Assembly: GCA_951406725.2 (NCBI GenBank)
Contig: OX597826.1
Location: forward strand, 68,076,001-68,140,000
Source of the DNA: Octopus vulgaris
Taxonomy: Eukaryota
DNA length: 64,000 bases
Direction of reading: 5' to 3'
Each line of letters opens with the position of its first letter. The first letter of the stretch is position 1. Of the stretch, positions 6,511-63,803 are shown one piece after another. The position numbers and the translations under genes are program-made. The notes beneath the pieces were generated by a model, which was given only the letters and a program-made list of their open reading frames with translations, did not search any database and had not been told where the DNA came from.

Positions 6511-6854
6511 GCCATCTGAGATGGTTATGCCGTTATCACTGTACATTCCTCTATCAGATGATATTTAGTTCAATGAAGGCGACGAGCTGATAGATTAGTT
6601 AACATAGGGTCAAAATGCTTAGTGTTACATATGTTCTGAGTTCAACTACCCTCACAGTCAAATCTGCGTTTCGTCCTCTCGGGCACGAGGAAACGTATCA
6701 TTACAGTACTAGAGTCGATGCAATCAACAAGGCTCATCAATCAAACTTCCATGTCTTCTGCCAATATTAGAAATGATATCTACTTCGACGAAATTGGAAA
6801 ATTCGGTAAATTTCAGATGACACACATTGATATTGCATAAAAGAATGTATTATG

Positions 6855-6889
<35 letters not shown>

Positions 6890-7366
6890 TTACAAATGCA
6901 CACACGTAATAATCTTTTCGCTCTCTGTCTCTCTGTCTGTCTGTCTCTCTTTGTATATAAATGCTTTATTACATTGAGGGCTGTTACCCTACGTAAGCCA
7001 CGCGTGTGGCTTTATTTACAGTAAAATTCCTTAATATAATAATGTATTTAAAAAAAAAATTATATACTTTGTATTAAATTTTACTATCTTTGGTTTTACA
7101 CGTTGAGATGTTTAATTGATATATATATATTAACGGTCTACTGGTAAAATTCAGGCTATAAAATTTGTTGAAAGTTGCGATATATTTCCACGTAAGGTGA
7201 ACATAATTTTCGTATGATTCCGTAACTTCGAAATTTCTTTTATTCTAAAGAAGAAGGCAGTGATTTAGAAGAATCATTAACACGCTGGACAAACTGCTCA
7301 AAGGTATTTCACCAGTCTTAACGTTCTGAGTTCAAATTCCTGCTGCGGTCGATTTTGCATTTCATC

Positions 7367-7421
<55 letters not shown>

Positions 7422-9044
7422 GCACGCACAGACTCATACAAATACATATGAGCATGCACAGACACAGATTCACATATACAAACACAAACCCAGAGGAGAA
7501 ATGAAGATAAATGGAAATTTATATTATTTGCCCCTACGTAAGTTTCCCCATTGTGGCTTAATGGATCCCAGCAGCAGGCATTCCCGATTTTGTCATAGCA
7601 CATGAATTTTTTACTCGTTTGGTTAGTCGGCAACGAGAATCAGAGAAGCAGCATTTAAAGAATCTTCGATCTCTATAAAATAAATACAATCTACTTTCGT
7701 GTGTTAGGTACATATACATTAGTATTTAAACACGGACATACAAACATACATGCGCGTAGCATATATTAATACGATTATGTATATATTTGTGAATGTGAGC
7801 ACATTTCTCTGTGTGTGTGTGAGTGTGTGTGTGTGTGTGTGTGTGTATGTATGCAGTGAGAGAGAAAGAAAGATGGAGAGAGAATAATTGAAATAAAACA
7901 ATCGATGCTATGTAGCTGAAAATAAAAACATGGCAGTATAATATACGCTTATTTTAATACACATCTATCTTGAGATGTTTTTAATTCACTTAAAGTTATG
8001 TTATATAATATTAATAAATATTTCTCCAAACTCTAACTTCGGTACTTTCTGCTTAAAAGATGCATTCTCTTAGTCTGTATGGGGGAATATTTTCGCAAAC
8101 ACGAGCAAGCAAGAAAACTGACACAACCATACATAAATGCACAGACATTACGCATATCTATGTGTGAATGTATGAGTATATATTATATATATATACATAT
8201 TTCTGTACGTGCATATGTGTGAATGCATGGATGTAATGTTTATGTGTATATAGATGCTTACATAAAAACATTAGAAACTTAACTGTCCTCTCTGTAGTAT
8301 TATGTTTGTTCGGTAAACAAGAAATGAACAGATATATCTGTTGCTATTTTTCGCACTGAAATTGTTGTTTACAACAAACCGTTGTTACAACATTTCAAAA
8401 TATTTTTTTCTTCCTTCGTTTTTCATAATTTAAAAAATAAAAAAAAAAACGATATTTTTTCTTCCTCCTTATCTATCAATCTAATAATCTGCTAATTTCT
8501 TTTTTTTTTGCGTTTTCTCTTTCGCATTTAGTTTTCAGACGTAATTCTTATCAATACATCGATTTAACAGAGGATATATTGTTTTGTTGATTTGTTTGTT
8601 TTCTACTTTCATTATACATTAGCGGAAGTCAACAAAACAATGCCAAATGTAGAACAGACGAAAATAAAAATCTGCCCAGTTAAATTGCTCTAAGGAAGTA
8701 TTCTGTCTCAGACATTCACACATGTATGTGAGAGTCCGAGTATGGCGTTTTAAGTAGAATTTATTTTACAGCGAGAAACTGTCAGTTTATTCTGACTTAA
8801 ATGTTAGTCTGTGGAAAGGAGTGCTATCGATTCCTGCATGTACGTATGTATGTATGTATGTATGTATGTATGTATGTATGTATGTATGTATGTATGTATG
8901 TATGTATGTATGTATGTAGGTAGGTATGTAGGTATGTAGGTATGTATGTATGTATGTATGTATGTATGTATGTATGTATGTATGTATGTATGTATGTATG
9001 TATGTATGTATGTATGTATGTATGTATGTTTGTATGTATGTATG

Positions 9045-9662
9045 TGAAGGCGCATGGCTCGGTGGTTAGGGCGTCGAGGTTACGATCGTGAAGTTGTGAG
9101 TTCTATTCCCGGACCGGGCTGCATAAGTTAAGTTAAGTTAATTTTTTGGCTCAAAAAGCAAAAAGCAAGGCTACGTAGGGAGACATGGAGTTATGTACAG
9201 GGTGGTGTTCATGCAAAGAGTTCAGACCATTTGTGGTCAAGGGAGACTTTGAACCGAGCGGTTGTCGGCATCTTCACTATCTCGTCCGGCAGCTTATTGC
9301 ACAGATCCGCAAACCGGACGGAGAAAGCCCCTCTCCTTCGATTGAGATGAAATCGTCGCAGATAGAGCTTTTGATGTTGTGAGCAAGAATAAGATCACCA
9401 CGGCGTGCATGTTGTGTTCTTGAGCAAGACACTTTATTTCATTTTGTTTCAGTGAACAAATCTGTAGAAATGAGTTGCGACATCTCTGGTGCCAAGCTCT
9501 ATCGGCCTTTTCTTTTCCCTTGGATAACACCGGTGACGTGGAGAGGGGAGGCTGGTATGCATGGGCGACTGCTGGTCTTCTTTAAACAACTTTGCCCAGG
9601 CTTGTACCTCGGAGGGTAACATTCTAGGTGCAATCCAATGGTCATTCATGACCGAAGGGGCT
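9045..9662 (+). mobile_element. tRNA-headed SINE (family D) interrupted by a CR1 fragment
   Basis: A box TGGCTCGGTGG and B box GAGTTCTATTCC. It resumes at about 9405 with CORE-like GTTCTTGAGCAAGACACTT and ends GTCATTCATGACCGAAGGGG. The same family occurs on the minus strand at about 47790-48132. Confidence 0.8.
9125..9404 (-). mobile_element. CR1-clade LINE 3' fragment
   Basis: The minus strand encodes RGDLILAHNI / QKLYLRRFHLNRRRGAFSVRFADLCNKLPDEIVKMPTTARFKVSLDHKWSELFA*, a CR1 ORF2 C-terminal pattern with an internal deletion. A short 3' UTR and a (TTAAC)n tail follow. Confidence 0.8.
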
Positions 9663-9730
9663 CCTCGTGTATTTATGTATCTATCTATCTATCCATCTAT
9701 CCATCTATCTATCTATCTATCTATCTATCT

Positions 9731-9892
9731 ATTTTTTCTTCCTTTCCCTTTTTTTCCTCTCCCCCCTTTTTTTGTCCTTTACGATCCCTTTTGATCGAAA
9801 ACCAACCCCCCTTTTTTACCCCCCAAAGAAAAGCTCTACCTTGCAATTTGTCCTGTCTGTGTGCAGCCCTGTGTGGCTAATAAAGAAACATA
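9731..9892 (+). mobile_element. LINE-like 3' UTR fragment after a (TATC)n tract
   Basis: A pyrimidine-rich segment ends CAGCCCTGTGTGGCTAATAAAGAAACATAT. The same terminus recurs alone at about 13498-13527 inside (TATC)n. Confidence 0.6.
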
Positions 9893-10114
9893 TTTATATT
9901 CTGTGTGCACCTATACTTGTATGTATTTATATATGTATAATGTATGTAAAATATATCTATATGAAAGTCCGCCTAGGTCGACTTTGCCTTTCATCCATTC
10001 GGGGTCGATAAATTAAGTACCAGTTACATACTGGAGTCGATCTAATCGATTGGATCCCTCCCCAAATTGTCGGGCCTTGTGCCTAGAGTTGAAGAGAATG
10101 TATTTTAAAAGTCG

Positions 10115-10588
10115 AAATGGGCGAAATGCTTTGTAGTATTTCCTCTGCCGTTACGTTCTGAGTTCAAATTCCGCCGAGGTCGACTTTGCCTTTCCTCCTT
10201 TCGGGGTCGATTAAATAAGTATCAGTTACGCACTGGGGTCGATATAATCGAGTTAATCAGTTTGTCTGTCCTTGTTTGTCCTCTATGTGTTTAGACCCTT
10301 GTGCGTAGTAAAGAAATAGGTATTCCGTCTGCCGTTACGTTCTGAGTTCAAATTCCGCCGAGGTCGACTTTGCCTTTCATCATTTCGGTGTCGATTAAAT
10401 AAGTACCAGTTACGCACTGTGGTCGATATAATCGACTTAATCCGTTTGTTTGTTCTTGTTTTTCCTCTCTGTGTTTAGCCCCTTGTGCTAGTAAAGAAAT
10501 AGGTATTTCGTCTGCCGTGACTTCTGAGTTCAAATTCCGCCGAGGTCGACTTTGCATTTCCTCTTTTCGGGGTCGATTTAATAAGTAC
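10115..10588 (+). mobile_element. Three tandem or nested SINE family B units
   Basis: Repeated …TTCTGAGTTCAAATTCCGCCGAGGTCGACTTTGC… units. The junctions read AAAGAAATA|GGTA at 10319 and 10502. Confidence 0.85.
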
Positions 10589-19039: not shown

Positions 19040-19325
19040 TGTAATCAGGTGACCGACCAGGTCATCAGCTGTTACTACATATCGCTAGTCACAATGCGCT
19101 TCGCCTTGTTTTAGCCTTCAAATGACGCCACCCCGCTGGTTGAACGAGCAGGCCAACAGAAGAAAGGGTGAGAGAAAGTTGTGGGTAAAGAATACAGCAG
19201 GGATCACGCGTGGAGATTTAGGTGTTTTCGCTCAATAAACAGTCACAACGCCCAGTGTGGGAATCGAAACCGCGATCCTACGGCTGCGAGTCCGCTGTCC
19301 TAACCACTGGGCCATTGCGCATCCA
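19040..19325 (-). mobile_element. SINE family A
   Basis: It is homologous to 17822-18135. Confidence 0.85.
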
Positions 19326-48639: not shown

Positions 48640-49780
48640 TGGGCAGCTGGCCCAATCGCTAGCACGCCGAAAAAAATGATAGAGACATTTCTTCTGTCTT
48701 TACATTCTGAGTTAAAAATTCCGCCGAAGTTGACTTTGCTTTTTCAACCTTTGAGGGTCGCTCTAATGAGGACCAGTTGAGCACTGCGCTCGTTGAAATC
48801 GAATAACCCACTCCCAAAGAATACTCTTCATTTCTCTAGGCAGAAGGTCCGAAATTTTTAGGGAGGGGGAAGTCGATTAGATTGACCCCGATACGCAACT
48901 CGTACTTACTTTATCGAGCCGAAAGAATGAAAAGCAAAGTCGACCTCGGCGGAGTTTCGAACTCAGAATGTCATGATAGACGAAATTCCGCTAAGCATTT
49001 TGCCCGGCGTGCTAACGTTTCTGCAGACTCACCGCCTTACTCTCAGTGAATACTCTTTTCTAATCGAGGCACAAGGCCCGAAATTTTGGGGCAGAGGGCT
49101 AGTCGATGAGATCGACTCCACTACGCAACAAGTACTTAATTTATCGACCCCGACAGGATGAAATGCAAGGTTGACCGCGGCGGAATTTGAACTCAGAACG
49201 TAAAGACAGCCTGATGAAGGCTGGAGGGTATATCAAACGAAACGTTGTGTTAACAACAAAGAAGAAGACAAATATACGTCAAATGTAAATAATGTAAATA
49301 ATGTACATAATTCCGCATCTCTTAAATATAGAACCAGACGTAATACCCAGAGAGCACAAAGAGGAACAGACACACAGATTAAGTCGATTACATCGACCTT
49401 AGTGCATAACTGGTACTTATTGAATCAACCCCGAAAGGATAAAAGGCAAAGTCGACCTCGGCGGAATTTAAACTCAGAACGTAGCGGCAGACGAAATACT
49501 GCTAAGCATTTCGCCCGGCGTGCTAACGTGTATGCCATCTGGTTTATGCCTTACTCCCAATGAATATTGTAACACTTTGGGCAGTGAACTGGCAGATCGG
49601 AAGCATGCCGGTCAAAATGCAGAGTAACACTTCGTCCGTCTTTAAGTACTGAGTTCAAAATCCGCCCAAGGTTATTTCCGGGTCGTTAGAATAAGTACAA
49701 GCCGAGCACTGCTGTCGATGTAATCGACTTTCTCCCTACCCCGGAGCTGCTCGCTTTTGCCAAAATTCAGAACCAATATT
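48640..49780. mobile_element. Cluster of about five SINE family B copies in both orientations
   Basis: Repeated GTCGACCTCGGCGGA.TTT..ACTCAGAA (minus) and plus-strand head/core motifs. Confidence 0.8.
49210..49334 (+). mobile_element. 5'-truncated copy of the hammerhead-bearing element (same family as 63337-63803), inserted in a SINE
   Basis: It reads C-CTGATGA-AGGCTGGAGGGTATATCAAAC-GAAAC-GTT-GTGTTAAC…CTCTTAAATATAGAAC and is flanked by CAG on both sides. Confidence 0.8.
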
Positions 49781-63102: not shown

Positions 63103-63336
63103 GCATGCACAGACGGACAGACATACTGAAAAACAAATAGATAAATATTGTGGGAAACAATTTTATTTTTTCTTTAATCTGGAATTCAAAATGCAAAATT
63201 TTTAGCATACTTTTATTTTTCATAATGAAGTATTTTTCATATTTTTCATATTTTTCCTATTTTCCCTGCACTTTAAAGATTTAGATACCACCATATTCTG
63301 GCTAAAGATTGCGTGCCGAATATATGTCCAAACACT

Positions 63337-63441
63337 GTTTGTTGTTAACACAACGTTTCGGCTGATATATCCTCCAGCATTCATCAGCTGACTTGAGGAA
63401 ATTTCGAGCCTGGGTTTTCATTTCCAAGGTATTTTTTGTGG

Positions 63442-63472
<31 letters not shown>

Positions 63473-63560
63473 CATTCAGGTCACTGCCTGGAATCGAACT
63501 CGGAATCTTGGGGTTAGTATCCAACGCTCTTAACCACTACGCCATATGACTTGAATAATG

Positions 63561-63605
<45 letters not shown>

Positions 63606-63803
63606 TCGAAAAATACCTTAAGAATGTGAACGAACGTTCGAAATTTCCCCAAGACACCCGATGAATGCTGGAGTGTATATCAGCCGAAACATTGTGTTAA
63701 CTAAAAGACAAAAAAAAAGAGGAGGACAAATATCCGTCATATTTAAATAATGTATATAATCTATATAATGTACATAATTCCTCAGCTCTTAAATATAGAA
63801 CTG
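63337..63803. mobile_element. tRNA-headed, hammerhead-bearing element in head-to-head inverted arrangement
   Basis: The minus copy (63551 to 63337) has a tRNA-like head (A box TGGCGTAGTGG, B box GAGTTCGATTCC), (TAA)n, a linker and CTGATGA…GAAACGTTGTGTT. The plus copy (63547 to 63803) has (TAA)n, the linker, GACAC-CCGATGA-ATGCTG…CAGCC-GAAAC-ATT-GTGTT and a tail. Confidence 0.8.

Follow-up and report, generated by a model that had tools for sequence, protein, structure and literature searches.

Close to the end of the analysed window, a stretch of 64,000 nucleotides of Octopus vulgaris DNA (contig OX597826.1, positions 68,076,001 to 68,140,000 of the forward strand), a tRNA-like head and a hammerhead ribozyme lie together in one repeat, which raises the question of what kind of element the repeat belongs to. 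The original prediction was a separate non-autonomous SINE or retrozyme family, carrying its own Pol III promoter and mobilised by a Penelope-like element (PLE). Mobilisation by a PLE is borne out, and an autonomous PLE that shares the repeat was found, with the repeat as its terminal sequence; the separate family is not. The unit of head, (AAT)n, minimal hammerhead and tail is the pseudo-LTR (pLTR) of a PLE encoding a reverse transcriptase (RT) and a GIY-YIG endonuclease (EN), an element of Penelope/Poseidon type and not a SINE or a retrozyme.

Comparison of the window with the family majority sequence by blastn shows two arms placed head-to-head (63314-63803) and, separately, a third piece (49203-49334). 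The minus arm opens with the tRNA-derived head (63477-63548, 96% identical to the family majority), which here starts ~10 nt short of the usual 5' end. As predicted, both promoter boxes are intact on this strand, with regex matches to a box A-like motif, TGGCGTAGTGG (63534-63544), and a box B-like motif, GAGTTCGATTCC (63490-63501), the former of which fits the type-2 Pol III consensus. The predicted order of head, (AAT)n and hammerhead is also present. The spacer, whose length differs among copies, occupies 63443-63476 and is separated by ~45 nt from a minimal type I hammerhead (63347-63392), recognised from its sequence and from cross-family comparison. Between the two lies the site of the ATG that opens an 838-aa ORF in the family majority (63419-63421), and the hammerhead corresponds to codons ~10-25 of this ORF. 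Its core strings are intact, G10.1 is changed and helix I is mismatched, and the predicted cut falls between 63352 and 63351. The arm continues to ~63314, its 3' end (63314-63346; blastn, majority positions 7-129) stopping short of the tail.

The second copy on the plus strand is indeed head-to-head with the first, but it has no head of its own beyond the last 7 nt, which form the inversion junction (63547-63553). This junction also accounts for the GTCA/TGAC pairing that had been taken for a tRNA acceptor stem: GTCA (minus strand, 63550-63547) is the reverse complement of the first bases of the plus arm, and the family majority begins GGGCATA and has no pairing with the 3' acceptor side. Downstream of the junction are the (AAT)n spacer (63554-63602), seen in the sequence, and the ORF-start region with the full PLE tail (63603-63803, 84% identical to majority positions 1-184), which stops at a 3' end common to 38/99 family copies. 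The plus-arm hammerhead (63653-63698) has a broken core, with U4 and G16.2 changed. The third copy (49203-49334, plus strand, 93% identical to majority positions 49-182) is 5'-truncated as expected, comprising hammerhead and tail; it begins at the hammerhead, carries a mismatched helix II and lacks a head. It apparently sits inside another common short repeat (49100-49203), with a few bases shared at the junction. Damaging changes are thus present in all three hammerheads, and what the locus shows is an ordinary inverted insertion of a PLE, its three ribozymes decayed. No family sequence was found in the 2 kb past the window end.

The family is large. Exact genome-wide matches number 8,830 for a 17-mer of the hammerhead, 6,663 for one of the head and 1,138 for one of the 3' UTR immediately upstream of the head, while the reversed control of each gives 0. 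Dividing these counts by the pooled match rates in sampled copies, which were 20/56 for the hammerhead (loci seeded on the hammerhead excluded), 46/117 for the head and 25/51 for the upstream 3' UTR, yields estimates of ~25,000, ~17,000 and ~2,300 copies, respectively. Copies are ~92% identical to the majority. The association of head and hammerhead extends well beyond this single locus: among 30 head-seeded loci, the window's own included, a hammerhead lies within 600 nt in 24, farther off behind another insertion in 2, and is absent in 4. The first 1.33 Mb of one contig (G000:C1:170000-1330000) hold 30 exact hammerhead 17-mer matches, against a genome mean of ~3.2 per Mb, and family density is higher near that contig end. 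A further repeat of ~600-750 nt recurs inside the (AAT)n of the pLTR at ten loci, which suggests an element that targets AAT microsatellites.

The coding nature of the family was established from both ends of the ORF. Coding sequence was found immediately upstream of the head in three head-seeded loci, from which a 200-aa piece served as an ORF-end query. In the 30 loci examined of the 150 listed for this query, a head lies within 250 nt of the ORF end in 26, a hammerhead is present in 21, and both in 20. A second query with the ORF N-terminus, also read over 30 loci, showed the tail in frame with the ORF start in 21, partly so in 2 and absent in 7. The pLTRs therefore flank the ORF on both sides (26/30 after its end, 21/30 before its start), and the passage from ORF through pLTR to ORF is continuous at four loci (L198, L201, L207, L218). 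The element reads as ORF stop, ~40 nt, head, (AAT)n, ATG, hammerhead, tail and ORF body. A majority built from 74 segments gives the open frame of 838 aa, beginning 22 nt past (AAT)n; the longest open frame found in the genome itself is 569 aa.

Matches to the 569-aa frame identify the RT. It aligns to RVT_1 with an E-value of 2.7e-6 and 27.7 bits, below the Pfam cut-off of 29.6, but matches 2,989 RT proteins; a PDB sequence search returned weak RT matches only. Pfam gives no direct match for the endonuclease part of the family ORF. Its sequence carries a C-terminal GIY-YIG-type motif, VYSIPCSC..YKGET..R..EH..H..E (CCHH), in which Y462, C468, Y472, E475, R478, R483, E486 and H504 are invariant in the protein alignment, and some full-length homologs carry PF01541. 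A relative of 55% identity encodes the same hammerhead-derived peptide, TPDxG..PKRCVNN, near its N-terminus. The CX2-5CxxC linker between RT and EN separates Neptune/Nematis from Penelope/Poseidon in the classification set out in the consulted part of PMC8557442; it is absent from the 838-aa majority and present in a control family from the same genome, and by this criterion its absence points to Penelope/Poseidon.

Sequence variation in the ORF has two components. Private changes are spread evenly over the codon positions (531, 513 and 547), while common variants are enriched at the third (22, 22 and 49), as expected of dead copies of a once-active coding element. Four low-identity matches were considered as sister families and proved to be decayed copies of the same one. 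Neither metagenome nor viral contigs yielded relatives to a query with one protein, and an alignment query found none in viral contigs. Among the sequencing runs listed as containing the family were DNA runs of several organisms and no RNA run. The control family (L285 445-2787; G000:C16:20836300-20841300) is a second, much younger PLE family with a Neptune-like CxxC linker, in which many copies share the same 781-aa open frame and the 3' UTR contains tandem repeats; a pattern search found no hammerhead core in it. In addition, 23 loci from prokaryotic MAGs (L368-L390) encode PLE-type RT/EN proteins, several with pLTR hammerheads, and are likely to be animal host DNA binned into MAGs.

The hammerhead consensus of the original prediction equals the genome-wide majority, and it fits the metazoan minimal hammerhead as far as this is described in the accessible text of PMC4209133. 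Across 19 families, the present one and 18 relatives, the same minimal layout recurs, with an extra base before G10.1-C11.1, a palindromic 15.2/16.2 and no helix III loop. Helices I and II covary, as had been anticipated, and show all four Watson-Crick pair types; pairing is kept in 69/76 cells for helix I (shuffle mean 34, maximum 48) and in 68/76 for helix II (shuffle mean 41, maximum 58). Both core strings survive in just 10/76 family copies not seeded on the motif. For such a ribozyme, cleavage would require a dimer or the help of a protein, and it does not set the ends of the copies.

The head resembles tRNA-Arg. When compared with 10 tRNA sequences of the same genome, a sample covering part of the isotypes, it shares 49/73 positions with tRNA-Arg(TCG) (z 7.9 against shuffles) and 51/73 with tRNA-Arg(TCT) (z 6.9). 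The alignment scores of 62.5 and 60 lie above a best-of-10 shuffle maximum of 47.5, and the tRNA-Arg scores exceed all 1,000 dinucleotide shuffles. Judged by its sequence, the pLTR head is derived from a tRNA and has boxes A and B. It is not a cloverleaf: the acceptor stem is unpaired, and for this reason RNase P processing at tRNA position 1 is unlikely. Neither an Rfam tRNA match nor an ARAGORN gene at thresholds of at least 80 was obtained for the head. A call at threshold 70 was treated as noise, since threshold 75 already gives 29 calls on four control loci. With Rfam, the locus and five good copies gave no match to either a tRNA or a hammerhead; its models cover neither the minimal hammerhead nor a head without a cloverleaf.

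The head appears to be particular to this family among the PLE loci at hand. Of 102 related loci retrieved from metagenomes and MAGs, 6 were dropped for short or missing matches, and a strict A/B box pattern occurs in 0 of the 96 used, many of which end short of the pLTR. Two other tRNA-like SINE heads in the window (19260-19315 and 1499-1554) match the pLTR head at 70% and 64% across 56 nt. They are no closer to it than tRNA genes are, so no donor is identified. Seven tRNA calls, six of them Cys, cluster within 3 kb at another locus (L226 138-2854).

The ends of the copies bear on how the short forms arise. They were mapped for 99 of the first 100 listed hammerhead matches on one contig, a sample not selected for 5' extent. 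The 5' end lies past (AAT)n in 20 copies, in (AAT)n or unresolved in 18, within the head in 15, at the head start in 37 and upstream in 9. Of the copies that reach the head start, 33/46 (72%) end within 17 nt of each other, and the density of 5' ends there is 0.042 per nt, compared with 0.001-0.008 on either side. Four further 5' ends at 640-643 are palindrome artefacts. At base level the edge falls at T650/G651, 13-14 nt before box A; in tRNA-derived SINEs, transcription typically begins ~13 nt ahead of that box. Leaving aside copies that clearly fold back, 81 remain, of which 12 end at 650-651, 1 at 645, and 7 extend farther upstream.

The 3' ends fall into two classes, 55/99 at positions 138-160 and 38/99 at 181-184, with 0/99 at the cleavage site near position 90. 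In 65/99 copies, the 5' end has an inverted arm no more than 150 nt away. Two 3' end classes and inverted arms are described for PLEs in the available parts of PMC8557442 and PMC11167929, and in the Anolis PLE the tail lies between two internal RT start sites (PMC11167929, same limitation).

The best explanation of these patterns, to which a probability of about 0.65 is assigned, is that Pol III starts at the head and that the PLE protein copies the RNA from a 5'-proximal internal site, producing SINE-like solo and inverted copies. The RNA would start ~13 nt before box A and be read by Pol III, and the RT/GIY-YIG protein of the element would nick AT-rich DNA. Reverse transcription would begin at one of two sites in the first ~160 nt of the ORF, as the in vitro internal start reported for the Anolis PLE illustrates (PMC11167929, in the part consulted). 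Extension of the cDNA to the RNA 5' end would give a head-to-tail copy of ~250-300 nt. The cDNA end would then fold back on a GCCC-AC-GGGC palindrome, or join a second nascent strand, to leave head-to-head pairs like the one in the window. The promoter part of the original prediction is probably right under this explanation, and the short SINE-like copies stem from the autonomous element's own sequence.

Some observations stand against a Pol III start at the head. The 5' pile coincides with the palindrome, so that stalling or fold-back on a longer RNA could also yield it. Five N-terminus-seeded copies have an upstream pLTR that reaches the head start, and 4 of them continue into the end of a previous ORF while 1 stops, indicating that long copies come from RNAs begun further upstream or from insertion into an older pLTR. 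Lastly, a related PLE (L335 4600-4800) has a pLTR that is A-rich and T4-free with no recognisable A/B box, showing that freedom from T4 can occur without any head.

It is also possible, though tentatively so, that Pol III transcribes the whole element, ORF included, from the tRNA-derived box, the 2.6-kb unit having been purged of T4. The sense strand of the 2,642-nt majority unit contains 0 T4 runs and 31 A4 runs. The probability of finding no T4 is 0.008 under a base shuffle, 0.028 under a synonymous-codon shuffle and 0.07 under a first-order Markov null. T4 is found elsewhere at 9 in 2,343 nt, 8 in 1,722, 3 in 1,227 and 1 in 1,002 in other PLE frames of the same genome, at 1.7-5.3 per kb in four LINE-type families, and at a mean of 2.6 per kb in related ORFs whose T content is similar (45 loci). 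The difference is more marked in the pLTR: from the ORF end to the hammerhead, T4 occurs in 17/18 related pLTRs (median 6) and 0 times in the family majority. The ATG sits just past the head.

Several points weigh on the other side of whole-element transcription. The T4 counts set a family majority against single copies, and a T4-making variant is common to 5/32 copies. T4-free ORFs occur in 3/96 related loci, and in 1/30 of at least 1,900 nt; that one (L293 2698-4690) is 48% identical in the RT part and T4-free over 1,993 nt, with a T4-rich pLTR and no tRNA-like head. The absence of T4 is suggestive but not decisive as a Pol III signal. The 4/5 long copies extending upstream of the 5' head also count against this reading, translation would have to proceed from a 2.6-kb RNA that has no cap, and autonomous partners are expected by Kojima to use Pol II, in the accessible portion of PMC10886601. 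A PLE that switched to Pol III by capturing a tRNA-Arg-derived promoter in its pLTR, lost its T4 runs, translates its RT-endonuclease from uncapped RNA and sheds SINE-like solo pLTRs by the tens of thousands falls somewhat short of an even chance.

A Pol II element with a passenger head, caught in the 3' UTR as a fragment of a tRNA or SINE, at which RT stalls or folds back on the palindrome, is a real but less likely alternative. In its favour, the 5' edge lies exactly at the palindrome and 22/103 copies mapped at the head show a clear fold-back, with several others retaining a few fold-back bases. Characterised PLEs have pLTR promoters tied to introns, according to the consulted part of PMC8557442, and the RNA data offer no start site. 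In three raw RNA-seq runs, 6,800-10,200 reads each map to one family locus, mostly <95% alike, with little strand bias and 63-68% continuing into unlike flanks. Neither these runs nor one contig set show piles of starts or ends, and depth tracks genomic copy number. This pattern fits passive transcription of embedded copies and speaks neither for nor against Pol III. Against a passenger head, 72% of copies stop at a stem of just 4-5 bp that closes a 2-nt loop; both boxes are intact though the cloverleaf is lost; and the pLTR is A-rich and T4-free, unlike 17/18 relatives.

It is improbable that the short copies are an independent family, SINE or retrozyme, that has master copies of its own and depends on the PLE for mobilisation in trans. 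Copies with the head are ~6- to 7-fold commoner than copies with upstream sequence, solo pLTRs could be secondary sources since they retain the head, the hammerhead and the RT start sites, and Sm-alpha provides a precedent in what is available of PMC2770079 and PMC6765202. But the head is part of the autonomous element, and when 49 short and 40 ORF-linked pLTRs were compared, with loci seeded on the window copy dropped, their majorities were identical at 250 positions (0 diagnostic, smallest p 0.002) and their divergence was equal at 5-9%. A tRNA-derived SINE lineage distinct from its partner is thereby largely rejected, the head lying within the PLE and short copies showing no majority difference. 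Membership among non-LTR retrozymes was likewise rejected: among the first 100 hammerhead matches, close pairs are inverted in 15 cases and same-strand in 2, no tandem arrays of the unit were seen, and, as noted, no 3' ends fall at the cleavage site.

A reading of the pairs as DNA transposons of foldback or MITE type, bounded by long inverted repeats, can be dismissed, for although inverted arms are common and TA is frequent after the tail end, the arms are unequal, usually one with a tail and one without, the TAT after the tail is the element's own next ORF sequence, the ORF that the repeat flanks encodes RT/GIY-YIG and not a transposase, and the ORF-linked head and tail together with the 838-aa majority frame refute this reading.

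For autonomous retrotransposons, Pol II is the expected polymerase, with read-through by Pol I for R2. A tRNA-derived promoter in the terminal repeat of a coding PLE provides a direct route from a PLE to a hammerhead-bearing SINE, and it shows that a repeat with a tRNA head can be the end of a PLE that was misfiled. From the thousands of copies, the 5' end of the RNA and the two RT start sites may be taken as mapped in vivo, and the copies support the internal-initiation model of the Anolis element. Should the whole ORF be read by Pol III, the family would be a natural example of a Pol III transcript that is translated into protein. It would then combine a LINE-class element and its SINE in one, and could serve as a model of how hammerhead SINEs of the Sm-alpha type arose.

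Non-coding SINEs and TRIMs are known to carry Pol III promoters, as stated in the part of PMC10886601 available. The same source describes TRIMp3 elements (Cassandra, Helenus, Ajax), which carry a small-RNA-derived Pol III promoter inside a terminal repeat and are LTR elements that encode no protein, measure 0.3-1.3 kb and have a PBS and a PPT, in contrast to the present PLE with its 2.5-kb ORF. Membership in TRIMp3 was rejected, as the repeats flank an RT/GIY-YIG ORF and not a non-coding LTR element. Animal non-LTR retrozymes are presented, in the accessible text of PMC7229834 and bioRxiv 10.64898/2026.07.22.740005, as short type I hammerhead repeats related to PLE pLTRs. They form tandem arrays, whereas the copies here are single or head-to-head and of the same kind as the pLTR. 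The octopus tRNA SINEs OR1 and OR2, cited as CORE-SINEs in the portions consulted of PMC4824008 and PMC4758252, also bring tRNA-derived heads into a cephalopod genome. They are set apart, by description only, in that here just (AAT)n lies between head and ORF start.

In Sm-alpha and Sj-alpha of Schistosoma, a tRNA-derived SINE-like repeat carries a hammerhead and is reported to be Pol III transcribed (PMC2770079, PMC6765202). The parts of these reports at hand present them as tandem repeats that are non-autonomous and whose hammerhead is canonical; in the octopus family the repeat is the terminal repeat of a coding element, the hammerhead is minimal and copies are inverted. A literature search found no tRNA-derived or Pol III promoter in a PLE pLTR, although the family may be catalogued in Repbase, Dfam or SINEBase with the head unnoted. 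One supplement file of PMC13282606 has no match to two family motifs.

Closest in anatomy are the Penelope/Poseidon PLEs, such as Penelope of D. virilis, Poseidon_Ac of Anolis and Cercyon of Schistosoma, whose anatomy was compared through the available portions of PMC4209133, PMC11167929 and PMC8557442. As in the octopus family, these have a single ORF with RT and, at its C-terminus, a GIY-YIG-type domain, a minimal hammerhead in a pLTR that overlaps the ORF start, a tail of 30-40 nt, inverted 5'-truncated neighbours and many solo hammerheads. Unlike them, the pLTR described here opens with a tRNA-derived A/B box, is A-rich and T4-free, and most copies begin exactly at the head. The novelty of the family is this tRNA-derived head, set in the pLTR of an otherwise Penelope/Poseidon-type element.
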